64,000 bases of DNA, taken from contig JBHGNT010000008.1 in assembly GCA_043228905.1 (NCBI GenBank), positions 7,130,001-7,194,000 on the forward strand. The letters run 5' to 3'. This stretch comes from Azolla caroliniana (lineage: Eukaryota > Plantae > Polypodiophyta). Made by a program: the position numbers and the translations under genes. Of this stretch, positions 12,497 to 62,033 are shown in pieces (position 1 is the stretch's first letter; every line of letters begins with the position of its first letter). The notes beneath the pieces are model-generated. The model saw only the letters and a list, made by a program, of their open reading frames with translations. It was not told the origin of the DNA and did not search any database.

Positions 12497-15400
12497 TTAA
12501 CAGTTCGTGGTGTTATTTTGTTCTGCTTGCCAATTCCTCTTGCGTTGATTTATGAACCAATTGTTGATCTGCTTCAATTCAAGCCCACTCTCTTCTGCTA
12601 ATTTAATCTTATCCTCCTCCTGCACTCCACAATTATGGAGATGATATATAAATAATCAATGACATTTAATCACCCAACAAAACACTAAAAACTTATATTA
12701 ACATAATTAATGAAATGAACCCCAAATCCTCGAACAAAACCTAAAATCTTATACTACCATAATTAATGAATGAAGTCCAAATCCTTGAACAAAACCCTAA
12801 AAACTCATACTAACATACTTAATGAAATGAAACCCACATCCTTGAACAAAACCCTAAAAACTTATACTTAACATAATTAATGAATGAACCCCAAATCCTC
12901 AAACAAAACCTAAAAACGTATACTAGCATAATTAATGAAATGAACCCCAAATCCTCAAACAAAACCCTAAAAACTCATACTAACATAATTAATGAAATGA
13001 AACCCACATCCTCGAACAAAACCCTAAAAACTTATACTTAACATAATTAATGAATGCACCATGCATATCAGCAAAAACCTAAGAAAGCAAGAATTCATGG
13101 TGCACTAGTAGCTCTAGCTCCATGAAAACAACTTGTGTGATTATGTATTGCAGGTAATTATACCGTGGGATATGGCCACTTTGCGTGCGCATTCCACCAG
13201 TCTTTGAGCACGTGGGTCGTCTCTCCGGGTAATTTCCCAGCACGCCGCTTCCTCATTATCTCGTCTCGAACATCCCTCAGTTTGGACCTATAATCCTATA
13301 TAATATCATACACAACATAATCATCTACGTTATTGCTCTTTTAATCAGTTAATAGGGTTTATGGTTTAGGTTTCATATACTAGAATTGTATGCTTTAATT
13401 TCCATGACACCCATATGGTCAAGCAATACATCCAGCAAATTTATATATATTAATTGAATGCTTGTAAGATTGAGTCCTTATGTTTGTGCCTAGACACTTA
13501 GCATTAGATAATTTATCAAAGCAATTGAATTTATTTTAACTAGGCCTGCATGTTTAAAATAATAGCAGTGGATCTTAAATGGAGTCACATTTTCATCAAA
13601 CAAGGTAATGGATGCTTATACCTTGTCATTGAATCAAAGAATGCAGGATGGGAATCAAATTAGGACATTAGGTTTTAAGTGTACACAATATAATCATCTG
13701 TACACTATTGCCCTTTTAGGGTTATATGCTATAATTTCCATGACACCCATATTGTCAAGCAATACATACAGCAAATTTATATATATACTAATTGAATGAT
13801 TGAAAGATTGGGTTGGTTCTTATGTTTGAGCCTTAGAATTTTTTGTAAATTAGATAATCAATCAAGCGATTGCATTTATTTTAACTAGGCCTGCATATTA
13901 TTGAAAACATGGCAATAAATCATCTACATATTAGCAATTGAATTTAGTTCAACTAGGCCTGCATATTTGAAAATATAACATTGTATTCATAAAAAAAAAC
14001 CCACCTCTTTGAGCTCCTTCTTCAGCTCTTGTCGAACATTGTCTATGAGGGCGCGATCGATATCATGAGCAGAGAAGGCATCGAGCGCATATGTGTACAC
14101 ATTATCTTGGCCAAAATTATACATATTGTTGATCTCTGCATCGGTATGATGCTTCTCGTCTTCTTCGGGCATTAAGGAGCCATTCCCAGGCCCAACACAC
14201 ACACCTGCAGAGTAATCATTACACTGTGTTTATCAGCATTAAATCATTGTATGAAAAGTTAAATTTAAGCAATATAAGATGTATACTACCCTAATCTGTG
14301 TGTATGTGTATGTGCTTGTGTGTGTCCATGCATGCTTAATCCTATGTAACTAAAATGTTATTGCATTATGAAGACAATTAATTACGCGTTGAAATCAATC
14401 CTGGATGATTATATGGGGAATTCAGAGGGGAAGGATTAATCTCTCTCGCAATTATCCACTTACCAGTAAAAGATTGTAGAGCGAGCTTTCGATCTCCAAT
14501 TAATTAAAATGTTATTGCATTATAAAGACAATTAATTACGCGCTGAAATAAATCCTGGATGATTATATGGTGAATTCAGAGGGGAAGGATTAATCTCTCT
14601 GGCAATTATGCACTAACCCGTAAGATCGTAGAGCGAACGTTCGATCTCTAAGCATGCCGTTAAGGCCTCGGCTGTTTGGGTATTCAGATGATCTTCTAAT
14701 TGCTGCTTGAATGACTCCAGCAATAATATGTAGCTTACCTGATAATCATCCTCATCCCACAGTACACAAATTTTGCTAATTATTAACAATCAACAGTTAT
14801 CAAATTGGAATAAAATTTCAAATTAGCTCTGTACGTGATCAATAACATAACTGATCAGCTAATTAATTCCGGTACCAATTAATGAAGAGTGTCACATGAG
14901 CAGCAGCCCCTCCTATTCATTATTACTACATGCAGCTAAGCTAGTTCATGGATTTATGTGTGATAATTAGGTCTACCATAAGCTCACAAATCTCTCTCAA
15001 ATAAATACGGTCGAGGCTAATGATAATTAAAATGCATATATATATACATCGTTAGCAATACAATTGGCAATAATAATATTTGCAACCTAGCGGATTAACT
15101 AACTACAGTTAACTATATGGGATGATCGATCGAAGCTCAGGACAACCTGTTGAATTAACTGTGAATTTCTGGCATAATCTAATCATGTAATACTATTGAA
15201 TCATGTAATACCACCAGTCACTCAGATGCGGTGGATTGATGTGGAGAGAGGGTTAGAACAGCATCATGGAAATAATCTATAGCAGCTACTAATTGCATAT
15301 TAAAAGATTTCGTTAATGGACCTTATAGGATTTTTCTAAAAAAATTTATTACCATGAATTGGTTGAGCTCGTCCTTGTCGAAATGGGTGGAGGTGGATGT

Positions 15401-15979
15401 ATTAATATTAATAGTATTATTATGATGATTATTATTATTATTAATGAGATTGGAGGAGGAGGAGGAGGAGGATTGGTTGAGGTAGTTGGAGGCGAGGAGC
15501 GGCAGTTGGTCGTTATTGTTGTTGTTGTTGTTGTTGTGGAGGAGGAGGAGGAGGAGGCGATCAGTTGGTCTGCTGTTGTTGCTGCTGCTGCTGCTGAAGG
15601 GCCGCGCCGCCACCTGGAGGCACGTCACGTGAGCCGCCAGGAGCTGCTTGAACAGGGGATGGGACACCACGTGGGCCTTCAGATCCGCCACGGCGGCGGC
15701 GGCGGCGGAATCTCCGTACAACCCGCCGCCGCCGCCGCCTCCGGAGGCGGCGGCGGTGGCGGCAGACATGGCGTTGAGGCTGCCACGATGATGATAATGA
15801 TGATGATGATCTCCGCTCTTCGGATGATTACTGCTACTGTAGCGGTTAATATGGATTAAATCATTCGGATTCTCTGCATCATCATCATCATCATTAGAAT
15901 GATGATGATGATGATTAGGAGGAGGAGGATTGCTCTGCTGTTGCTGCTGCTGCTGCCAATGATTGTTGTTCTGCTGCAT
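12497..15979 (-). CDS. KNOX2: Class II KNOX (KNAT3/4/5/7-like) TALE homeodomain protein, ~400 aa; possible sixth exon 12264-12367
   Basis: Exons 15979-15353, 14738-14618, 14204-14005, 13295-13164, 12619-12497, in phase. KNOX1 ([21 protein letters not shown]), KNOX2 ([21 protein letters not shown]), ELK ([11 protein letters not shown]), homeodomain [41 protein letters not shown]. The KRRAGKLPG and RNW motifs indicate class II. Confidence 0.93.
12676..13060. repeat. ~57-bp minisatellite, 7 copies, in KNOX intron 4
   Basis: Unit AACAAAACCCTAAAAACTYATACTAACATAATTAATGAAATGAACCCCAAATCCTYG. Confidence 0.9.
13390..13975. repeat. Diverged ~170-bp direct duplication plus a partial third copy in KNOX intron 3
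   Basis: AATTTCCATGACACCCATAT.GTCAAGCAATACAT at ~13397 and ~13732; AACTAGGCCTGCAT occurs three times. Confidence 0.75.
14351..14648. repeat. 154-bp-period tandem duplication spanning the KNOX exon 2 donor
   Basis: Copies start TAAAATGTTATTGCATTAT at 14351 and 14505. Confidence 0.85.
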
Positions 15980-15999
15980 AGCCGAATGAGGAGGAGCTT

Positions 16000-28340: not shown

Positions 28341-30298
28341 AAAAGGGAAGCTATGCATGAACAAGGCATTCAAAGCAGAACAAAGAGTCCAAGCAATGAC
28401 AAGATGGGAGGACCCTGTGGAAGAGAAGTCTAGCTTCGTCGAGGCCATGTGTCAAAACTACAACGTCCTAATTGAAGAGACATGAAAAAGACTAGATGAC
28501 CAATTAGGCTTTTCAAAGAAACATGACACACGAGAAGCTGTTTGAAGAAGGGAGGAATCATCACCGCCCCAAACGATAACCGAAAGAGGGAAGGAAAGAA
28601 TCGGACCAACGTTCAAACTATGCTCGGAGATAGAGCAATACACTGACCTTAAGCGTGTGATGGAAGAAAGGATCCTGGATAGCCGAATTGAGTTCACACT
28701 ACGGGAGATCTTAGGAATTGCAAAGAAAGAATTTCATGATGTCATCATTGACTTAATAAGAAGGAAGAGACTGACGCCAACTGAAGAAGGAACCAGACTG
28801 GAAAATGTCTCGACAAGCACTATAACAATGGAAGGTCTCGAAATTGAACAAAAATTTGTGGGTAGCCATTTCGCTAGGCCACATTGGGCTAGGGCCACTA
28901 CCGAGACACCGGTGTGGATGGGAGACTTGAAAGATCCGGTGGTGGCGCTCATTGATAATAGCTTGGAGATCAACCTCATGTCTCTTGACTTCTATCGGAA
29001 AGGTCGCTAGCCCATTAATACTAGACATGGGTGGAAGATTTGAGCGGCAACCAGGGCGATTGAAGAGCTTCATGGGGCCTGCCCTAACGTTAAGGTAACT
29101 ATTGGTGACATTGAGCATGATCAACACTTTTTTGTGTAGGAATCGGCGTCACATCTTATCATCCTTGGCGAGCCTTACATTATAGCATCCTGGATGGAGA
29201 CAAAGGTACTTGATAATGGTTCAACATATGAGCGGATACAAAGTCAAGATGGGACAAGCTCGGTTAAATTCCTCACCGTACGACCGAACCATGAAAGAAA
29301 TAGGCATAACTTAGGGCAAGAATCTAGGGAGGATTTTTAATTCGGCCTATTAGGGAGAGGGACAACAATAGTCGGGGACATCTAACTATGTCCCCAATTC
29401 AGTGTAATAAAAGTTGTCACCCCATTAATGAAAATGAAGTCTTGTTTTTCGATTTGTATAGGGATATACCCTGACAGAAATAAAGGGGCCAAAAATTTAT
29501 AGCGTGTGACCTACTTGCCCGACATATACATGCATTGAAAATGAGGCTCTTTACCAATCACTCTGTGCCGCATCTTGCACAGAAGAATTTTAGATCTAAG
29601 CTAATTGTACATGACTATACATATTATGGAACAACAAGCGATGTGAAAGAAGTAGATGTAAAATTGTGTTTGGTTCTCATATTCTCTGTTGTCTGTGGGC
29701 CAAAATAGTATCATATGTGAAACGTAATAGGTATTAGGCAACAATAGGTAAAACAACCGAAAGCAATTAGAAGTAGCCAAAAAAAACACAGTCGTAAACG
29801 TGAAAGGAGAAGGAGCGTGCCAAGGAACATATATATAAGGAGCAACAGACTGAAGAAAAAGAGAGAGAGATATAGGAGAGAAGTCTGAGGTTATTACATA
29901 AAATATCATACTACAGTGTATCTATTACATTCCGGCAGATAGCCGCGTAACTGTAACCATTTCCCATTCTGTAATCTAAATAGTGTTGGCTCTATGTAAT
30001 GTCACTGTTAGCTTTTAATAATTGTTAAATAATTTAACTCTCCCTATTGTGTATACACAAACTGAGGCTTTCTCTTATGTAATCTGTAGGGTGTCATCTC
30101 GTTTCTTAAAAGCGATTTTGACCACCATGTACCACAGTCCTTTGGTTCGATTCCGGTTAGGAATCGAAGTTGTAGCCTCCGGAGAGAAGGCAACATTCTC
30201 AAAATCATATGGTTTTATGGTTGGGTACATAGCCTAATGTAAGATGTGCGAGCCTTCATAAATTTCCCAATTCGTATGATATTGGAATTATGAAAAGA

Positions 30299-30683
30299 GT
30301 CTGCATTAATTTCAAGGTATATCCAACAAGGGCAAGATCTTGAATAGCTGAAGTGTTACGAATGTATGCAAAGTGAGGGGCTTTCTCGTGATGTGATCTC
30401 ATTCTTTTTGCATTTGAAAGGCTTATGGAAACATAGCAGCTCTATACAAGGGTAAAAAATGCATGATATGATTCTCAACTCAAGGTTGCTGAAAAATAAT
30501 TTTATGCATGGAAATACCTTAGTGAATATGTATGCCAAATGTGGAGAGTTTGTAAAATCTCAAAAAGTGCTTCAAGAGCTTCCTATTCGAGATATAGTCT
30601 CTTGTAATGAATGCACTTATTGGTGGGTATGCTAAACAGGGTCAAGGCTGCAAAGTGTTGGATTGTTTAAAACAGATTCAGTC
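30299..30683 (+). pseudogene. PLS-class pentatricopeptide repeat (PPR) gene fragment
   Basis: ALISRYIQQGQ..CYECMQSEGLSRDVISF, GNTLVNMYAKCG, KVLQELPIRDIVS, ALIGGYAKQGQG, with stops and frameshifts. Confidence 0.85.
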
Positions 30684-38626: not shown

Positions 38627-40382
38627 TGTCGCGAAGTTTCGCGCGCGTGTGTTACTTGGGCGGGACCACGGGGGTCTCGGACTAGGGAGTACTCAAGGGA
38701 TAGAGAAGACCCGAGGTTTGCTTTATGACAATACTACTTCCCCACCCCTTCCCGAGCAAGGTCTCGTTCCCCTTTTGTTTTGTGAGGCCGGTGACTCTCG
38801 TTGATCACGACTCGTCGACCTTCCGAGATCACCGTACGAGCCAAGTGACCAAACGAGTACAAGCAAGATGAGCACTCAACATGAACGCGCAAGGGGACGA
38901 TAACACAAACACGAATGTCCGTATGGCTTTATGAGGAGGAGAGGTGCATGGGCGCGCCTGAACGCTCCCTCGTGACAAGACGTCGAACGTACGAGGAAGA
39001 CACAAAACACACGCACAAAATGCTCGTATGCCTTTATGAGGAGGAGAGGTGCATGGGCAAGCCCGAACGGTCCCGTCGTCACAAGACGGCCAAACGTACA
39101 AGGAAGACACAAACACACGCACAAATGCTCGTACGTCTTTATGAGGAGGAGAGGTGCATGGGCAAGCCCGAACGGTCCCCTCGTCACAAGACGGCCAAAC
39201 GTACAAGGAAGACACAAACACACGCACAAATGCTCGTACGCCTTTATGAGGAGGAGAGGTGCATGGGCAAGCCCGAACGGTCCCCTCGTCACAAGACGGT
39301 CGAACGTACAAGGAGGACATAAACACACGCACAAAATGCTCGTACGCCTTTTTGAGGAGGAGAGGTGCATGGGCAAGCCCAAACGGTCCCCTCGTCACAA
39401 GACGGCCGAACGTACAAGGAGGACACAAACACACATACAAATGCTCGTACGCCTTTATGAGGAGGAGAGGTGCATGGGCAAGCCCGAACGGTCCCCTCGT
39501 CACAAGACGGCCGAACGTACAAGAAAGACACGAATAAAGAAAGAAGGAGAGAAAGAAACACGAACAATAATGACCAAAGAGTTAAATACGTGTTTGATTC
39601 TAATGCAAGAGGACCCTTTATAAAATAGGGTTTTTATTTTATTTTTTTACAATGGCAACTTATAGTTAACCACAAGCTCAATCAAAACATAAATATTAAA
39701 TGCCCTTAGAGACAAGGCAAAACCGAACACGGCGAAGACGAACACACGAGCACCACCAAAATGCCAATCCCAACGAACCACGACCACCCGAACGGCAAGC
39801 ACACGGGCTCGCAACGACGAACGGGGCGGAGCAACGTCGAGCCAACGAAGCTTGGGCTCATGGCGATGGGGGGATGAAGGGGTATGAGATGAAGAAACGT
39901 GGTGAATAAGGAGATGAAGAGCTTCGAAGGAAAATTGGCGATAGTCTCCTCCTCCCAAAACGTCCCTCCAAATGAGCCCCCCTCGACCTCCTTTTATAGG
40001 AAAAAAAGAAGGGGGGGGTCGCCAAATTTGTCTTCAATGAAAAGGAATAAAATTCCTTAAATCACGCTACATTGTAAGACTAGATTCAAACCGTGCACCT
40101 CTAGGTAGTAGTCAATGTGACTATTCACTAACCCACTAACTCTTTCTTATATAATATGTAAGTCTATTTCTATAAATTTATAGCCTGTCTCCCCTCTACC
40201 CTTTATCTCACCTCTCTCTTACTTTTTGCACGAGCTTCTATACCTCCCTTTTACCCTTTCTTTTCCTTTTTATTTTGCATATGCACAATTAATTGCTTTT
40301 GTGTGCACACACATTGCACATGCACATTTTTGACCCCCTTTTCGCCGGTTTTTCCCACCCTCGAGCACGCCACATCATGACA
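38627..40382 (-). mobile_element. Long solo LTR (1756 bp), family X-related
   Basis: TG...CA ends, 4-bp TSD GCGT, U5 motif GAGACCCCCGTGGTCCC on the minus strand, TATA near 39995. Confidence 0.8.
38920..39530. repeat. ~105-bp tandem repeat, 6 copies, inside the solo LTR
   Basis: (A/T)TGAGGAGGAGAGGTGCATGGGC at 38931, 39036, 39141, 39246, ~39352, ~39457. Confidence 0.92.
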
Positions 40383-50182: not shown

Positions 50183-50606
50183 TGTTGAGTGGCAAGCTCA
50201 ACCGGAGCCGGATCGGCTGAATAAGCTTGAGCTGGTAAGCGAGATGAATCGGTATGCCGGTGAGCAACCGAGCCGGTAAACAGTAAGGACAGGTGAGCTG
50301 GGGAGCCGGTATGCCGGATCCAATCCGTAACCGGAAGCCTAGTATAGGTTAGACTACTAGGCAGTTATAGTCTCGTAGTTAGTGTCAAATGCTCGTGTGA
50401 GCATTGAAGTACACCGTACTTCTAACAGTCCCGTGTGGACTTGTATAAATAGCGCTGATGAGCGCGTTGTAGATACAGAGCACAGAGTATTCATATAATT
50501 TTGGAAAATAGTGTGTCTTGCTCTCTCTCTCTCTCTCTCTCCCACGTACTCTCTCTCTCTCTTTGTGTACTGTTCTTTCTAACGCTTCCGCAAGCAATCT
50601 TTAACA
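50183..50606 (+). mobile_element. Copia-type solo LTR (424 bp)
   Basis: TGTTGAG...TTAACA; perfect 5-bp TSD AGGTT; excision restores the host pol frame. Confidence 0.9.
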
Positions 50607-50956
50607 AGGTTCTTTTGCCTACTGTACATGTGTGGGGTTTTTCCGGAGTGTCCGGAATATCGCGTCCCCACGTCTTGATAGCCCTCTCTAAAAATCCCCT
50701 CGGCTTTCGCCGCCGAGGGTCCCGCGGTTACGCTCGTGGTTCGGTCGTACCGTCAGAAACTGAACGGAGTGACGCCCATCCTGGCTTTTGACTTGGGCAT
50801 ACGCCGAACCGTTGTCCATCACCTTCGTCTCCATGTGCGCCGCTATGATGTACGGTTCTCCAAGTATCACCGGATGTGAGGACGTCTTCTGCACAAAGAA
50901 GTGTTGATTGATCTCGACATTGCCGATTTTCACTCGTACATTCGGGCAAGCTCCGT

Positions 50957-51590
50957 TGTCGTGAAGAAAACCGTCCCTAGGCGGAAACTGGATATAACGT
51001 GCGTAAACCGGCCCTTACACGTGGGCACAAGTTTTGTTGTATAGTACGTAGATAGGTACAAGTTGGCTGAGGTGAAATCCTAGGTAGCACGCATTGATTA
51101 GGGAGAAAATCGAGGCGTATCCATGTTCGAAAGGACAGGGAATAAACATGATGTAACGTGTGGTAACAACCTCCCTCCTTGGGCTATAAAGAGAGGGAGA
51201 GGTATTGTAAAAAGGGGATCGCGTTTTGTGGACGAGGAAGTGTTGCCGGACATAGTCGTTCTCCATAGTCGTTCTATGCAGGTTTTCGGGAGGCTGACTC
51301 TACTCTGCGGAATGCCTGAGTGCTTCTGGAAAAGTCTCCATCTCGCGTTCTGTGCATGTGTGTGCAGGCGTTGGAGCCTATCACTCGCCGGCTTGCTGGT
51401 TGTAACTCCTCGATTTATATATATACATTCGTTCTGTCTCCATCATTCGGAGTTAGTTGCAACTCCTGTGAATCAGTGTTTCTGTGAGTACATCTTTTGT
51501 TTCTTTCCCCTCTTCTCATTCGGTTATTTCTCAGTCCAAGGCCCCCGGGGTCCCGCCTCGTTCTCCGCGCACGTGCGTAACAACGCGACA
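50957..51590 (+). mobile_element. Family X solo LTR (634 bp) in the protease region of copy 2
   Basis: TGTCGTG...CGCGACA; TSD CCGT/CCAT; host reads EELHG|ACPNV. Confidence 0.88.
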
Positions 51591-53564
51591 CCATGTAGCT
51601 CCTCCGTGGCGCGCGTTGCTGCCCGTATCTTCCACGTGTGCTTGGCGTTGATCGGCCAGTTTCCCTTCTTGTAGAAGTCCATGGACATCAAGTTGATCTC
51701 CGAACCGTGGTCTACCAACGTCACCACCGGCTCTTGGGCGTCCCCAATCCGAACAGGGGATTCCGTAGTGGCCCTAGCCCAATGTAGCCTCGAGTAGTGG
51801 CTTTCCGCCAACTCGTCCTCCAGGGCCATGTCTTCTACGTGCGTCGTTCATACCTCCACCGGCTTCTCCGGCTCCGGCTTCGTCAAAAGCCTTTTCCGCT
51901 TCACCAAGTCTACGATGGAGTCGTGGAACTCCTTCTTGGCGAAACAAGCACTACCCTCAGCGAAATCTCCACTTTGTTGTCGAGGATCCATTCCTCTAGG
52001 ACCTTTCGTAGGTTTGTGGTCCTTTCGATCTTTGTGCTCAACCGGTAACCGGCCTTCTTGGCCTTGTTCGGTGCGCCGGATGCACCGCCATCATTCTACC
52101 CCAGCCCCCCCGGTCTTTCCCGCGCGCTTGTCTTCCACCTGAGCTTCGTAGTTCTGGCACGCGGTTTCCAACAAGCCTGTCTTCTCTTCGACCGGGTCAC
52201 TCCACCCGGTTACCTTTCGGACCCGTCTTTCCGCACGGTCCGCTTCCTCTTTCCTTAGTTGTACGCCGGCTAGGCTTTCCAGCATCAATGGCCAGAACCC
52301 GGAGTCCTTCATTTTCTGGACTTCATCACTCTTGACCAGGATTGCCGCCGACGTCAAGTAGTGGATGGTCTCCGCGTGGCGAGCCGCCACCTCCTCCATC
52401 AGCCATTTCATCCGCTCTCGTCCGACGTTCAGATCTAGGGCCCTCCGGGTTTCGCTAGCGTGTACCCGCCTGTTCCACAGGTACACCACGTTGGCCCTTA
52501 TCGCTTCGGCGAAGTCCCCGCAGTCCTTTTGGGTGTGGCCAACTGCATCGCACCACAAGCACCGATGCCCAGCCGGAGGCCTTCGGTCACGGGCTTGTTC
52601 GCAGCCGTCCCTCCGTGCCTGTGCAATCTGGAGGTTCCTCACCATTTGAGTCAGCTCCTCCAGAGCCGCTCCTCCGGACTAGCCTTTGACCATGCTGGTC
52701 GAAGTTGAGCCGGTCTCGAGCAACTCTCGGGTCTCCTCCCTTCGTGCCGGTGGGGGTACCTCGAGCTTCCTTGCCACAATAGAGCCCGCCCTCGACAAGC
52801 CTTTATCAACACACTCACGCCGTTTGTCGAAACGGCCGCAGACTCTCTTCACCACAACCCAGTCGGCCGTTAGCCCGTCATCGGTCTCCAGTAGGAGGCC
52901 CACTTGCTACCGGTCCCTCACGTCCACCGATTTAACAAATAATAGGATACGACTTGTGTCTAGTACGGTCCAGTCCAGCGCCGAAAGACGCGCGAAGCGT
53001 TCGTCAAACTCCCGGAGGAGCACCGACGCGTTTCTCCCCTTTTTGGGGGTCTCCACCAATTCCATGAAGCCCTGCTTCGATAGCCGAAGCGCGTAATCAA
53101 GCCCGTATTTCTCAAGAAGACGACCTTCAAACTCTTCCCAGGTCTGGCTCTCAACCCGTACCTTGAGCACCTCCACGTGGATGCTCGACATTGCCACCCG
53201 AGGGAGTCCGGCCAATAGCCTGTCTTCCGGAATGTCCCTCATCACCATTTTGGCTCGGTAGGCCTCCAAGTAGCTCGTGGCGTCCTTTCCACTGAACCGG
53301 CCTATCGTGCCAACAATTGCTTCAATAGCCCTATCGAGGGCGCCTGTGCCTTCGCGCGCACTCACTAATCGATCTACAGCTGAAGCCATGGCTTTTGCAA
53401 GCTCTATTCCCCTCATCTTTTCTATTCCTTTGCCGCCTGTTCACGTCGGGTTCACCAAATATGTCGCGTTGTTACGTGCGTGCATATAGAACGAGGCGGA
53501 ACCACGGGGGTCTTCGACCAAGGAAAAACCGAACAGGAGTAGGAGCAAGAAAGACAACAGTCGT

Positions 53565-54328: not shown

Positions 54329-54996
54329 GATACATAGAAACCGCAACCGAATGAAACAACCGAAACGAGACAAATGCGTATATGTATGTATATATTCTGA
54401 TGAAAAATCTTAGGTGAGTGACAAATCTCCTACGCCTACGCACACAGAAGAGTGAGATGGAGACTCTGTCGGAAGCACTTAGGCGTTCCGCGGAGTAGAG
54501 TCAGCCTCCCGAAAACCTGGACAGAGCAAATATAGAAAAAGACGGAGGATAAGAACTCAGTTCCAGTCCGACAACACTTCGTCCTTGGCAAAAAGAAACG
54601 ATCCCTTTTACGATTCCTCTCCCTTTCTTTTCTAGCCCAAGGAGGGAGGACGTTACAACTTGTTACATCATCTTTATTCCTTGTCCTTTTAAACAGAGAT
54701 ATGCCTCGATTTCCTACCTATCAAATCCGTGCGACTTAGGATATTCACATCAACCGACTTGTACCTAAATATGTACATTACGACAAAACTTGTGCCGGCG
54801 TGTAATGGCCGGTTCGCGCACATCATTCTCCGATTCCGCCGAGGGACAGTTTTCTCCACGACAACGCGCTTGGTCTTAGGTCCTCGTGCGGCTATAATGT
54901 ACGCTTCATTTTTCGCCGTAGTGCTTGCGTCGTATTACACCGTAGTGCAAGCTTCGTATTCCCTCGTAGTGCATCCTCCATTTTGCGTCGTAACGC

Positions 54997-57900
54997 TGTC
55001 ATGAAGATTTCGGGCCATAGGTAGAAACAAGGTGAAACGCGCAGGAACACCGGTTTACGCGAGTGCACGCCTCGAGGGAATTAGATAGGACAAATACTAG
55101 GCATGAGTATAAGGAGGGGTACTAGGATGTTAGAGCATAGACATTGCATAAGTAGGGAGAGTTACGAGGAGAGTAAATCAGGGAGAGAATCTAGGACAAA
55201 AATGACGGGTCATGAATGCTTGTAACGGTCGCTCCTTGTGCTATAAAAGGGGCGACCTTTGACTGTCTTCGGGATGCCATCTAGAGGAGAGGATAGACAG
55301 AGAAAGGGGCGACCTTTGACCGCGGAAAAAGGCGCATCCCCTTGCTCACATCAGATGCCTGAGTGCTCCCGACCTGGGGATCGACCTTCTGCGCACCGAC
55401 GTCTCTTTGTACCTGGCTATTTGCCAAACTCTGCGCTCCATCATCGGCTCTGATCCGGCTGTAACCACTCACAGCACCGTGCACCTGTGTTTTAATAGAA
55501 ATCTTTCTACCTATCACACTTTGTTCTCAGTGTCTTTGTCCATGTTCGTGTCTACGCGTGACTCTCTTACTCTCTCTCGTTCGCTAGACTTACCCACTCT
55601 CTTGTGGTCTCAAGACCTACGCGGTCCCCAAACTCCTACCCCCTCGCTTTCTCGATTCCTTGGTTCGAGACCCCCGTGGTCCTGCCCGACTTCTATGCAT
55701 CCGCGAGGATTTCCTCGACATTCTTTGGTGAACCCGACGTGAAGAAGGGTGGCAAAGGAATCTGGAGATGAGAGGAAGCGAACTTGCAGAAGCGATGGCG
55801 GTGGTGGTAGACCGCCTGGTTAGTGCTCACGAGGGCGCGAGTGCCCTCGACCGGGCGATAGAGGCAACAGTCGGCAAGATAGGCCGGTTCGGCGGAAAGG
55901 ACGCCACGAGCTACTTAAAGGCCTACAAATCTGAAATGCAGATGAGGAACATACCCGAAGATAGAGGGCTAGCGTGGTTTCCCCGGGTCGTAACACCACA
56001 CATCCATACAGAGATGGTCGAGATACAAGCGGTCTGTCACGATTGGGCGGAGTTCACAGAGGAAGTTCTCGAGAGGTATAGCTACGATGATTCGTTCCGG
56101 CTATCGAGAAAGGATTTTATGGACTGGGTCAACAGCCCCAACAAGGGTCAGAACGCTTCTGCACTCCTCCAAGAGTTCGAGTCACGGTTCACACGACTCT
56201 CTAGGTTGGACCGAACCGTGCTCGAAATGAGCAAGGTTCTATTATTTTTCACTTCGTTCGACTCACACGTCCGGGAAAGCGTGGGTCTTCTTCTGGAAAC
56301 CAACCAAAGCCTCACGACTGATTGGGCAACCGTCAAGGAAGTATGCAGCAGGATTGACAAATGCCAGTATTGGAAGGAAAGGGGGTCCTCGTCGGTCAGA
56401 CTGGCTGTCGGAATCAGGGCCGAACCAATGCCGACCCGGATGGAAGAAACGAAGAGGTGGCTCGAGCTAGGCCCACCTCTGGCGAACATAGTCGCGGGAC
56501 CTGCAGGTGGCGCCGGACTAGAAGAACTGACAAGGATGGCGCGCGACCTCCAGATTGCCCACGCCCGACGAAGCAACGAAGGTAAGCCGCGTGACCGGCG
56601 ACCATCGGCCAACCAGAGGTGCATATGGTGTGACGCCACCGGACATGCCCGGAGAGAATGCGCTGACTTTGGAGAAGCGCTCAGGAGTAATGTAGTCTAC
56701 CTTTCGAACGACAGGGTTCATGTGAGCGACATGCGAAGATTGCTCGACACGAATTTTGGACAAGGTGGCATGAAGAGGCTAATGGAAGAAGCCGTGGCCT
56801 GGCACGTCGAAGCCGTCCACTATTCAGCTTCAGTCGGCATACGCGTAGGGGAGAAGACAACCAAACCCGATTCCAAATATGGGTTCCAAATACACGTAGG
56901 GGAGAAGACCTTGTCCTGCAGAAGAACGTGCTCGCGGAGTTACCGGGTAGAACGACCCCGTTGAAGAAATCACCGGCTTTGTGGAGGCCGCGTGTAGGAA
57001 CTACGAAGCCTTGATCGACGAACGGTGAGCAGGAAAAACTGGGGGAGCGGGCCCATCGGGGAGGCATGACACACGAAGCGCAACCAAAAAGCACGATGCC
57101 GCTCCGACCGGATCCCAGGAGAAGGAGAAGGGCAGGATTCCGAGCTTCCGCTTAAGCTCGGAGATAGAGAAAACAACGAACCTACAAAAGGTTCTAGAGG
57201 AGCGAGTTCTCGACAGTCGCATAGAACTCATGCTTAGGGAAGTGCTCAGAATAGCAAGAAGGGAGTTCCACAACAACATCGTGGACCTCGTGAAGAGGAA
57301 GCGTCTCGCAATGGAACCAGAGCCCGAGAAGCCGATGGAGGTAAGGGCGGCACTCCTCGATGAGATAGCCGTGGAAGACGAGCTCGTGGAGAGCCACTAC
57401 GCCAAACCGCACTGGGCAAGAGCTACTACAGAAACCCCGGTTCGTATCGGGAATATCAAGGAACCGGTGGTGGCGTTAATCAACCATGGGTCGGATATTA
57501 ACCTGATGTCCATGGACTTCTACAAAAAGGGGAATTGGCCTATCAATACCAAACATGGGTGGAAGATACGCTCGGCTACAAGAGCCACGGAAGAGCTACA
57601 CAGGGCTTGCCTGAACGTCAGGGTGAGCGTTGGGAACGTCGACATAAACCAACACTTTTTCGTGCAAGAGACGTCCTCTCACCCGGTCATCCTTCGGGAA
57701 CCATACATCACGGCGGCTAGAATGGAAACAAAAGTGTTGGACAATGGTAAAAAGTCAGGACAACCATCACTCCGTTCAATTTTTGACCGTTTGGAAGAAC
57801 CACGAACGAAATCGGGACACCCTCGGAAATGATAACAAGCTGGATTTTTAAAAAGGGCTATCAAGGCGTGGGGCCGCGATAGTTCGGATAACCGGAAAGC

Positions 57901-60900
57901 TCCCCACACTTGTAAAATAGGTAGGAAAGTTTTGTTCTCCAACAACAGAGGATGTACCATAGTTAGCATCGGTGGCCGAGAAAGAAAACGGGCTGAGATA
58001 CGCTTGAAGGCGTGCGGAGCCTTGAGCTGCGACGAAGGAATTGGGGAAGCCGTGGAGGCGGTTTCATTCGATGACACCCTGTGTGAAATCGGGAAGGTAA
58101 TCGAAGGAGGTCTAAGCGAAGACCGAGTCATACCGGTCAACTCGATCGACATGTATGAAGTCATTGCGGACTTTGAAAGAGGAACCCGGGCGCATCGGAT
58201 GGCCCGAGTAGACACGAAATACAAGACTGTGGACCGGAAGGTGAAGCCCGTCGCGGCCCCCTTGCCGGAGGGCAGTTGGGAACGAATAAAGGGGGTCGCT
58301 ACCGACCCCAGCTTGCGGGATCCGACCGGCATAGGGCACCCTTTCACCGACAAAACGCTACGAGAGCTGAAGATCGGTGGAGGTGGCTTCCTACTGCCGG
58401 CGGAAGAGGATCGGTTCAGAAGGATGCTCGAAAGGCACGGGAAGGCCTTCGCATTCTCACCAAGAGAGATCGGGTGCGTCGACTCGACCATCGTCGAGCC
58501 AATGCCAATATTTACAGTACCGCACGTACCCTGGAGCCTCAAGCCAATCCAAGTACTGAGGGCTCACATGCCGATGTTGATGGAGCTCCTTAAGCAGAAA
58601 GTAGAGTTGGGCATCCTCGAACCGTCGAGTGCCCCCTATTCTAATCGGTGGTTTACGGTACCGAAGAAGAACGGTACGTTGTGGTTCATCCAGGACTTAC
58701 AACCAGTCAACAAAGTGACCATCCGCAATATGGGAGTTGGACCGTCGATCGATGAGTTCGTGGAAGCCTTCGTTGGAAGGTCCATATACTCGGTCGGAGA
58801 CCTTTACTCAGGATACGACCAAATCCAACTGGTCGTGGAAAGCAGGGACATCACGACTATGCGGACCCCTCTCGGTCTAGTTCGGATGTGCACCTTACCA
58901 CAAGGAGGAACCAACTCGGTTGCACACATGGTGAATGCTATGAACAAAGTTCTGAGGGACTGCATTCCGGACATCACCATGCCTTTCCTGGACGACATCC
59001 TTATCAAGGGGTGTCCGGAGGACACCAAGGATGAGTCGATCGGCGTGGACGGGTGCCGAAGGTTTGTCACGGACCTTCTCGGGAGGCTCAAAGGCATGCG
59101 GCTTACCTTCTCGGGAGAGAAGTCGGCCTTCAAGCAACAAGAGATATATTAGTGGTTGGCCACCTATGTGGGTCGTACGGCCGGAAGCCATCGCAGACCA
59201 AGGTAGAGGCCATCTCGGCAATGAAGGAGGAGTGCGGATCCGTCACAGAGGTCCGACGATTCTTAGGAGCATGTGCCTTCTACCACATATGGATCCCTCA
59301 TTACGTGCACGTCGTTGAACCACTCTATGGCCTGTTGAAGAAGAGCAGAAGATTCACATGGACGAAGGAACATACTGAGGCAGTCTGGAAGCTATAGCGA
59401 GCGCTTACCATAGCACCGGCTTTGCGCAAAGAGGAATAAGCACCGAGTACTCTGGTCTACATCACAGTGAACACCAGCCTGACCGAGATCGGATGGGTCG
59501 TGAATCAAGAGGACGAAGACGGCACGCGCTTCCCTATCCGGTTCGGTGCGAAGGTACTGAGTGAACGACAGCGAGGATACACCCAAGTCAAGCGCGAGCT
59601 GTGGGGTATTGTTTCGGCGGTCAAGGTTGACAAAGACTACTTAATCGGGGCAGAAGTAATTATAGAAACGGACTGCCTGCCGATTCTCGGTATGGTCTCC
59701 GGATGCGCGACTCCCGACCTTGCCATGCTCAGGTGGATTGCGTACATCAAATCCTTGAACCTGGAGATACGACACATCTCGGGTAAAGACAATGGCATGG
59801 CCGAAATGCTTTCCAGAGCAAGATTTGAGGATGAGGACAGCATGGTATCGGAGAACGAAAAAGTCGGCGCAGACGGCTACAACGGGGAGTGGCTCCTAAT
59901 CGGGAGATTTCTAAAGACAATGATGACAGACGCCATGATGGCTAAGGAGGCGTCCAGACAGCTCTAGAAGAGGGCATACCGATATTTCCTACGAAACGGG
60001 AAAATCTGGAGGGTCCCGAAAAGTCGAAACGACGCATCGCTCCGGGTAATAGCGCAGACGAATGACCAACAGAAGCTGATGTCGGAGCTCCATGAGGGCC
60101 CTTGGTCCGGACACCGGGGTACATGGGCTACATTCGAGAAGTTAAAAGAAAAATACTGGTGGCCATGCATGTACAAGAGTGTGCATGACTTCGTGTCTAC
60201 GTGCCAAAGTTGCCAGATGCACTTGGTGGTTCGACACCGCGACGAACTACACCTGACTTATCCTCCGACCGTGCACTTCAAGTGGATGGTTGACTTAGTT
60301 ACAATGCCGATGGGTGAAGGGCAGAAGCGATGTCTAATGCTGGCTAGAGAGGACCTAATCAACCAGGTAGAGGGACGAGCACTAACAAACAGGACCACCG
60401 CGGCAGTATGTAAGTTTTTGATCGAGGATGTCATATGCCGATAGGGTGCGTGGGAAAAATCGTGGCTGACCGAGGAGAGCTAGACGCGGAAGAGGTTGAG
60501 GAACTGTTCAGTCAGTTAGGCGTAAATCTGTCCCTCACAACGTCGTACAACCCGGAGGCAAATGGAAAGATTGAACGGGGCCACGGTCTGATCGTAAAGG
60601 CCATTGTACGCACGTGCGAAGGTCAAGTCGGCAACTGGTCGAGGTAGCTCCCATACGTGTTGTGGGCGGACAGGACCACCCACAGTTCGGTGACAGGGTA
60701 CATGCCAGCGGAACTAATGTACGGCCAGAAACCCATCATGCCGGTAGAGCGGACGATCGCCTCGTGGGCAGCGATCGATTGGGCTAACGAAATGAGCAGA
60801 GAAGAGCTGCTAGCGGCACGAAACCGGCAACTCGAGCAAAGACCGGAAGATGTGGAACGAGCCACGGCAAAGGTGAAAGAAGCGCGGATCCGAAACAAAG

Positions 60901-61999
60901 CCGGGTTCAACCGAACGCACCGACTCCGGCCAAGGAAGATCGAGGAAGGTGATTGGGTGTTAGTCTACGACAATAGCCTCAACAACCAGCATAGGTATAC
61001 ACGCAAGTTTGCGAAGCGTTGGTTCAGACCGTACGTGGTAAATAGCGTCAATGACAACGTCACGTATCATCTCACGGAGCTAGACGGGACACAAATAACG
61101 ACTCCGGTGGCCGGGAAGAGTATAAAAGCCTTCAAGAGACGGAACCAGGAGGAACCGGACCCGGGTGCCGGAAGCGCCACCTCAGGAGGGGAGGATGAGT
61201 AACTGATGGCCCAGAATCCTCCACTAAATTCACTATCCGGCACATACCGGAGGATGTGCGGTTCTGTGGGGGTGGATGTCGTGAAGATTCCGGGCCATAG
61301 GTAGAAACAAGGTGAAACGCGCAGGAACACCGGTTTACGTGAGTGCACACCTCGAGGGAATTAGATAGGACAAATACTAGGCATGAGTATAAGAAGGGGT
61401 ACTAGGATGTTAGAGTATAGACATCGCATAAGTAGGGAGAGTTACGAGGAGAGTAAATCGGGGAGAGAATCTAGGACAAAAGTGACGGGTCATGAATGCT
61501 TGTAACAGTCGCTCCTTGTGCTATAAAAGGGGCGACCTTTGACTGTCTTCAGGATGCCATCTAGAGGAGAGGATACACAGAGAAAGACTGAGGACTGACC
61601 GCGGAAGAAGGCGCTTCCCCTTGCTCGCGTCAGACGTCGGAGTGCTCCCGACCTAGGGATCGACCTTCTGCGCACCGACGTCTGTTTGTACCTGGCTATT
61701 TGCCAAACTCCGCGCTCCATCATCGGCTCTGATCCGGCTGTAACCACTCACAACACCATGCACCTGTGTTTTAATAGAACTATTTCTACCTAACATACTT
61801 TGTTCTCAGTGTCTTTGTCCATGTCTGTGTCTACGCGTGACTCTCTTACTCTCTCTCGTTCGCTAGACTTACCCACTCTCCCGTGGTCTCAAGACCTACG
61901 CAGTCCCCAAACTCCTCCCCCCTCGCTTTCCCGATTCCTTGGTTCGAGACCCCCGTGGTCTTGCCCGACTTCTACGCATCTGCGAGGATTTCCTCAACA
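54997..61999 (+). mobile_element. Gypsy family X copy 3, structurally full-length (~7.0 kb) but with stops and frameshifts
   Basis: LTRs 54997-55720 and 61277-61999 (about 10 differences in the first ~240 bp), PBS 55726-55743, gag from 55768 (CIWCDATGHARREC), protease, stop 57849-57851, pol ~57842-61202 (RT, RH, HHCC, DDE integrase), PPT before 61277. Confidence 0.95.
57842..57907 (+). promoter_or_regulatory. Predicted -1 ribosomal frameshift signal (slippery heptamer plus pseudoknot)
   Basis: G_GAT_TTT then TAA; 6-nt spacer; stems GGGCTATC/GATAGTTC and GTGGGG/CCCCAC; -1 frame open into RT. Confidence 0.7.
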
Positions 62000-62033
62000 G
62001 CGTGTGCTCCTAATTACGCGCTTCTCCCGACGT

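Follow-up and report, generated by a model that had tools for sequence, protein, structure and literature searches.

How does a retrotransposon express its reverse transcriptase (RT) when the reading frame for gag and protease (PR) closes just upstream of it? This question is raised by a 64,000-nucleotide stretch of the Azolla caroliniana genome (contig JBHGNT010000008.1, positions 7,130,001 to 7,194,000; hereafter the window), which carries three pol-bearing copies of a long terminal repeat (LTR) retrotransposon. The element showed the features of the Ty3/gypsy group, namely LTRs, a primer-binding site (PBS) and the domain order GAG-PR-RT-RH-INT, where RH stands for RNase H and INT (or IN) for integrase. 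We observed that gag-protease and RT-RNase H-integrase occupy two different open reading frames (ORFs), that a heptamer at their junction is conserved at the nucleotide level, and that base pairs downstream of it covary. Pseudoknot-stimulated -1 frameshifting is a known mechanism, and in these Phygy-like elements it very probably joins the two frames: a minority of the ribosomes would slip back by one base on the heptamer, ahead of a predicted H-type pseudoknot.

The 10-mer GGATTTTTA(A/G), that is G_GAT_TTT_TA(A/G), was found exactly three times on the two strands of the window (29331+, 50697- and 57842+), where base composition predicts about 0.43 occurrences, so that the count alone is modest. 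At each of these sites the protease ORF ended in Asp-Phe-stop, as had been claimed in an earlier note made from the letters of the window. The note had also read the -1 frame of copy 3 as open from the heptamer into RT; this frame ran from 57836 to 59152 (438 codons) and indeed reached RT. It held likewise that copy 2 has an open -1 frame once a solo LTR is removed, and the phase arithmetic agreed: the solo LTR plus one copy of its target-site duplication (TSD) measures 429 nt, a multiple of three, and therefore the phase of pol is kept. For copy 1 the note had described a -1 frame open for about 47 codons until an insertion. The 47 codons were confirmed, but the ungapped similarity to the intact relative L067 covered only 117 nt (39 codons) and resumed near 30669, which places the break in homology earlier. 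Because all three window copies are decayed, relatives were needed to test the proposal.

We fetched 88 metagenome loci by means of a pattern for the protease end that did not include the slip site; the same pattern gave no matches in viral contigs or in the genome contigs searched. A gag stop was visible in 84 of the 88 loci, and gag ended at G_GAT_TT(T/C)_stop in 63 of them. The remainder comprised five loci with a stop two to six codons past the heptamer, five with a one-base change in the heptamer, two from a branch with pol in the +1/-2 frame, four from a family that lacks pol, and five that were otherwise decayed or deleted. Among the 65 loci ending in Asp-Phe-stop, which are related and not independent, a G preceded the Asp codon in 64 and GAT was used in 64, against backgrounds of 28% for a third-position G (1070/3788) and 64% for GAT (155/242). 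As the 27 cluster representatives used in other analyses were partly selected by motif, 64/65 is the unbiased figure. The codon preceding the slip site specified 12 different amino acids and always ended in G, so that the constraint acts on the RNA. The variants G_GAT_TTC, G_GGT_TTT and G_GTT_TTC all fall within the X_XXY_YYZ types known to shift. Thus, the upstream frame contains the canonical -1 heptamer X_XXY_YYZ, in which G_GA is a documented exception, found in dianthoviruses and umbraviruses (PMC5009743).

For the downstream frame, pol was scored as long and open when it extended for at least 600 codons, or for at least 300 codons up to the contig end. This was the case in 32 loci, with pol in the -1 frame in 30, in the +1/-2 frame in two, and in the gag frame in none. 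In agreement with a canonical -1 signal, the -1 frame was open from the heptamer itself in those 30 of 32 loci, across about 120-135 poorly conserved codons, and its first Met was located anywhere from codon 3 to codon 111. In many loci a gag of about 700 codons was accompanied by about 990 open pol codons.

The slip site is followed by a region with the potential to form a pseudoknot. Stem 1 of the family is GGACTATT/AATAGTCC, and its alignment is free of gaps across the stem. It paired in 83.8% of 500 cells, as compared with 21.6-41.2% at slid registers, and showed double changes in eight of its ten pairs, a result matched by none of 500 shuffles. Using a tree derived from the upstream protease DNA, we defined 11 independent sister pairs, in which 19 of 24 changed pairs were still paired and five of five double changes were compensatory; at slid registers only 6-10 of 24-33 were retained. 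Four visibly decayed singleton clusters (L007, L012, L052 and L075) were left out of the sister-pair and register tests, keeping 23 of 27. Covariation, which the earlier note had named as a check on its fold, is therefore clearly present in stem 1, the predicted stimulator, whose spacer of 5-6 nt is within the 5-9 nt range of known signals (PMC5009743).

Stem 2 is formed between a G-run in the loop of stem 1 and a C-run 10-17 nt past it. Unfitted and in one fixed register, it paired in 107 of 138 cells, versus 40-90 at other registers, and made 97 Watson-Crick pairs versus 78.6 after permutation, with none of 20000 permutations reaching this value. The pairing GTGGGG/CCCCAC, correctly read before in copies 2 and 3, is one of several on deep branches, together with GCGAGA/TCTCGC, ATGAGGGT/ACCCTCAT and CAAGG/CCTTG. 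Stem 2 is likely real, being supported across deep branches and not between sister families, and the conserved core is a predicted two-stem H-type knot. Plain minimum-free-energy folding of the window copies failed to recover the knot, which is usual with pseudoknots, and an Rfam search with five loci gave no match at E<=1.

The shared topology had originally been drawn with three helices. The core of stems 1 and 2 held, but the intervening hairpin did not: as a family-wide third helix it was rejected, since it was found only in the clusters near copies 1-3, where it competes with stem 1 or stem 2, and it could be a local alternative fold. The idea that copy 1 builds its fold from a different sequence was not borne out either, given that its stem 1 is the family stem with two mismatches that are absent from the intact L067. 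Its stem 2 had probably been misassigned to GACAAC/GTTGTC, a pairing that overlaps the base of stem 1 and is present in 4/5 members of the copy 1 cluster; the positionally homologous stem 2 is GGGACA/TGTCCC.

A derivative family provided a further comparison. In L020, L057 and L068, gag-protease leads directly into a purine tract and the start of the LTR, and no RT motif is present, which makes these elements non-autonomous; L034 shares their sequence up to the end of its own contig. All four loci have A_GAT_TAT at the site, with no knot after it. The predicted signal is thus lost where no pol remains to be expressed, which is a natural control.

The position of the protease relative to the shift deserved attention. 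The domain just before the slip site scored weakly in Pfam as an aspartyl protease and aligned weakly with the Ty3 protease (E 0.15), with DHG placed on DSG. Its predicted structure (predicted local distance difference test score of 69, the best of five models) matched Ddi1 and retroviral proteases, with E values down to 4e-6, and a Pfam scan of two pol ORFs detected no protease in either. On the basis of this structural match the upstream domain is predicted to have a retropepsin fold, so that the protease precedes the shift. Together with the absence of pol from the gag frame, this result supports the earlier proposal that RT-RH-IN is reached by a -1 shift after the protease. The catalytic motif was DHGS, not D(S/T)G, in 188 of 211 motif-pattern proteins, and DSGS in more distant relatives, predicting an unusual retropepsin for the family. 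In copy 3 the motif reads LINHGS (57473-57490).

Homologous proteins were named from Physcomitrium, Riccia, Calypogeia and Adiantum, those of Physcomitrium having 61-69% identity in the protease region; for the liverworts, the fern and Physcomitrium the evidence is the protein ending only. Out of 122 distinct homologs of at least 600 amino acids, 111 ended at, or 4-6 residues after, [DG]F (VF-D/Y enders included).

We propose the following sequence of events. Ribosomes holding tRNA-Asp and tRNA-Phe on G_GAU_UUU would meet stem 1 five to six nucleotides downstream, the gag stop often being the codon right after the slip site. Upon slipping back by one base, the tRNAs would re-pair on GGA_UUU. 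The majority of the ribosomes would terminate, yielding Gag-PR in excess, while the shifted minority would produce Gag-PR-RT-RH-IN, the layout of Rous sarcoma virus.

Several observations weigh against this interpretation. Swapping the arms of stem 2 between sister families had a flat outcome (cognate arms better in 4/11, worse in 3/11 and equal in 4/11), and its per-sequence shuffle gave p >0.05 in 13/25. Stem 2 also has G-runs that pair easily and a register that drifts by as much as 5 nt. In addition, the stem 1 shuffle and the stem 2 swap and permutation tests made across clusters ignore relatedness, and protein coding in the -1 frame places an added constraint on the knot region. It could be argued that the same -1 shift is stimulated by the stem 1 hairpin and the adjacent stop alone, stem 2 being an incidental complementarity between a G-run and a C-run; in pea enation mosaic virus (PEMV) a nearby stop does matter for the shift on G_GAU_UUU (PMC5009743). 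We consider this explanation unlikely, because stem 2 recurs on deep branches with different sequences and one modal register. Moreover, in L013, L018, L021, L073 and L084 the gag stop has shifted into stem 1 while the stem arms stay at unchanged positions. The slip sites of these late-stop branches were G_GGU_UUU, G_GAU_UU(U/C) or G_GUU_UUC, and L013 and L018 grouped with an Adiantum protein in the tree.

Other observations against a -1 shift come from proteins that run across the junction: 8/122 long homologs continue past the site, several Physcomitrium 'predicted proteins' fuse gag-PR to pol at varying points, and the distant relative P0181 extends for 918 amino acids past the protease with no stop. 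The run-on homologs and the Physcomitrium fusions are probably gene-model artefacts, and P0181 is possibly a single-ORF version. Such gene models, joining both ORFs, would also fit the production of pol, as in Ogre, from an RNA that is spliced or subgenomic, with the structure regulating splicing or packaging, and GGATTTTTAG does look like a 3' splice site. This route is nevertheless very improbable: only 29 of the 63 stops are TAG, with 21 TAA and 13 TGA, no AG is common to more than 13/23 clusters and no GT to more than 17/23, the top ones lying inside stem 1, and the -1 frame is open right from the heptamer, through codons that are poorly conserved. Slippage of RNA polymerase II or of RT on the T-run, adding the base at the level of the transcript, is the option to which we give least credit. 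A run of five T is present at most sites, but no more than three or four T occur in intact families whose site is G_GAT_TTC or G_GTT_TTC, and the fixed distance to a paired structure suits ribosome geometry. A ribosomal -1 shift stimulated by the predicted pseudoknot is thus the interpretation that we retain.

Two loci, L046 and L066, have their pol in another frame. Their gag ends with CAG GTT TTT (G/T)AC TAG, both stems are kept, the stem core lies nearer by one base, and stem 1 is lengthened to 10-11 bp. Pol is open in the +1/-2 frame for about 980 codons, and the -1 frame closes within 1-6 codons. The two loci were monophyletic in the RT and protease trees (support 100/99 and 100/100), their RT tips measured 0.12-0.13 substitutions per site each, and all other RT rows were -1 elements; a midpoint root leads us to infer that the change went from -1 to +1/-2. 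The arrangement in L046 does not stem from an assembly slip. In two runs the summed contig depth at its junction was about 10,000 and about 2,300, no indel being listed, and one 444-nt contig of a third run bridged the junction with zero differences; one X1 contig (depth 53) omits 93 nt across the site, representing <1% of the local depth. A further run, X17, which may be RNA, contributed no contigs to L046 and has no bearing on expression or splicing. The L066 arrangement rests on its own contig and on the 99%-identical protein P0307, contig coverage there being patchy, with none listed spanning the junction. The gag-protease cluster of the L046 family has 35 members, and the branch is high-copy in at least one family.

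The most likely route to pol in these two families is a -2 slip, towards which we lean with some caution. On CAG_GUU_UUU, where the stem core is nearer by one base and the -1 frame closes early, a slip of two bases would lead into pol. Both families contain the G_GUU_UUU site and the long -2 ORF of an arterivirus-type signal: G_GUU_UUU is the -2/-1 site of the arterivirus PRRSV (PMC6675879), and shorter spacers raise the -2/-1 ratio in a human immunodeficiency virus cassette (PMC5009743). The C-rich CCCANCUCC motif was not seen 9-10 nt downstream on reading the L046 and L066 sequences, stem 1 being at that position. Against a -2 slip, only two families are known, and in 21/50 of the -1 sequences one more pair can form, which brings the nominal spacer to 5 nt there too. 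In both families a pol-frame AUG lies 5-9 codons upstream, and a +1 shift, or reinitiation at this AUG just upstream of the gag stop, has a considerable chance of being correct, albeit short of an even one, as +1 and -2 end in the same frame and the spacer differs by a single base. On the other hand, the position of the AUG differs between the two families, the knot is kept and its stem 1 lengthened, and the change of GAU to GUU lets tRNA-Phe re-pair in the -2 frame, whereas +1 re-pairing in L046 would be on UUG.

Taking these results further, one knot cassette placed after the protease may be shared across moss, liverwort and fern retrotransposons, with one branch having passed from -1 to -2 through GAU to GUU and a knot one base closer; we hold this wider proposal to be evenly balanced. 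The possible switch from -1 to -2 is the most interesting part. If correct, it would represent a natural -2 frameshift driven by an RNA structure, with a matched set of -1 sisters, and the branch would be a natural test of whether a shift takes its direction from the length of the spacer and the sequence of the slip site. Separately, the Calypogeia fissa protein P0186 ends in ...EKVFY, resembling the +1/-2 branch, and may be another case as judged by its protein ending only.

The features of the three copies are collected in the table. The 18-nt PBS of copy 3 is a putative match to tRNA-Trp; a literature search for this PBS gave unrelated papers only. Unusually, the distance from the LTR end to the PBS varied, at about 1-9 nt (window positions 55721-55743, and 28 loci). 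The motif NCGN was found directly before five LTR starts (38627, 50957, 54997, 62034 and 62749). The flanks of copy 3, ACGC (54993-54996) and GCGT (~62000-62004), are not identical and do not match as a duplication, so this copy may be a recombinant of two insertions. An LTR of the same lineage (50957-51600) is inserted into the protease of copy 2 on the opposite strand and, together with the LTR starts at 38627, 62034 and 62749, indicates nested insertion at NCGN sites. Elsewhere the window contains a tandem array that repeats about every 105 nt (38900-39534) and host genes, namely a starch synthase exon (1989-2459, +) and a KNOX homeobox exon (15323-15997, -), with long low-complexity runs.

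Table. Coordinates, in window positions, of the features of the three element copies.
Feature	Positions	Strand	Remarks
Copy 3 slippery heptamer G_GAT_TTT	57842..57848	+	Same heptamer class before the stop in 63/84 relatives
Copy 3 gag-protease stop TAA	57849..57851	+	TAA, TAG or TGA in relatives
Copy 3 predicted stem 1, 5' arm GGGCTATC	57855..57862	+	6 nt past the heptamer
Copy 3 predicted stem 2, 5' arm GTGGGG	57868..57873	+	Within the stem 1 loop
Copy 3 predicted stem 1, 3' arm GATAGTTC	57878..57885	+	
Copy 3 predicted stem 2, 3' arm CCCCAC	57902..57907	+	
Copy 3 5' LTR	54997..55720	+	94.4% identity to the 3' LTR; flanked on the left by ACGC, in keeping with NCGN
Copy 3 3' LTR	61277..61999	+	
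Copy 3 primer-binding site TGGTGAACCCGACGTGAA	55726..55743	+	Motif recurs upstream in 28 loci
Copy 3 gag + DUF4100 + protease	55768..57851	+	Interrupted by frameshifts in copy 3
Copy 3 pol (RT, RNase H, integrase)	57842..61202	+	-1 frame open until 59152, broken beyond
Copy 2 heptamer and TAG stop	50688..50697	-	
Copy 2 predicted pseudoknot	50632..50684	-	One mismatch in stem 1; stem 2 is GTGGGG/CCCCAC
Unrelated solo LTR within copy 2 pol	50183..50606	-	424 nt; TSD AACCT; phase-neutral
Copy 1 heptamer and TAA stop	29331..29340	+	
Copy 1 predicted pseudoknot	29344..29394	+	Two mismatches in stem 1; stem 2 is GGGACA/TGTCCC, in competition with a local hairpin

Plant LTR retrotransposons have been described as mostly single-ORF or splice-regulated (PMC5580714, PMC12786077), and a 2003 survey (Gao et al. 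2003), as summarised in PMC5009743, reported for plants +1 arrangements only. In the literature searched (including PMC5009743, PMC5580714, PMC12786077, PMC12789967, PMC11963269, PMC7466625, PMC6675879 and PMC6317226, in the parts available, and with subscription journals outside its coverage), no plant LTR lineage was described as having a pseudoknot -1 signal. In the REXdb table the ORF organisation of Phygy is given as 'ND' and no GAG-PROT:overlap:RT-RH-INT class is listed for any lineage (PMC6317226), in line with the earlier view that a -1 arrangement after the protease is unusual among plant LTR elements. If our interpretation is correct, a pseudoknot-type -1 signal throughout a plant lineage would fill this gap and settle the organisation of Phygy; it would explain why gene callers truncate or mis-splice Phygy-like elements, and would offer, for plant ribosomes, some two dozen frameshift cassettes that have diverged in nature.

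Judging by their NCGN flanks and PBS, the elements would fit the REXdb Phygy lineage (Neumann et al. 2019, PMC6317226), with which they share a conserved PBS, Physcomitrium homologs, the lack of long extra ORFs and, probably, NCGN insertion sites; in contrast, copy 3 measures about 7.0 kb, and Phygy elements are listed at 7.7-10.0 kb. Ogre and Retand also break after the protease, keeping GAG-PROT apart from RT-RH-INT, but Ogre does so with an intron and Retand with an in-frame stop, and neither is listed with overlapping frames (PMC6317226). The heptamer G_GAU_UUU, with a stop nearby, is used on plant ribosomes by the dianthovirus red clover necrotic mosaic virus and by RNA2 of the umbravirus PEMV (PMC5009743); these viruses pair a bulged stem-loop with a distant 3' element, whereas the structure predicted for our elements is a local, compact H-type knot of about 55 nt. 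The branch of L046 and L066 resembles the arterivirus nsp2TF -2 frameshift in its G_GUU_UUU site (PMC6675879), although the arterivirus stimulator is a protein complex acting on a C-rich motif at a distance of 9-10 nt, and in this branch it would be an RNA knot at 5 nt. Finally, our elements differ from Rous sarcoma virus in being plant Ty3/gypsy elements with the slip site G_GAU_UUU and a protease with DHG and not DSG; they share with it a protease carried with Gag and, as proposed here, one -1 shift into RT-IN stimulated by a pseudoknot (PMC12789967, PMC5009743).

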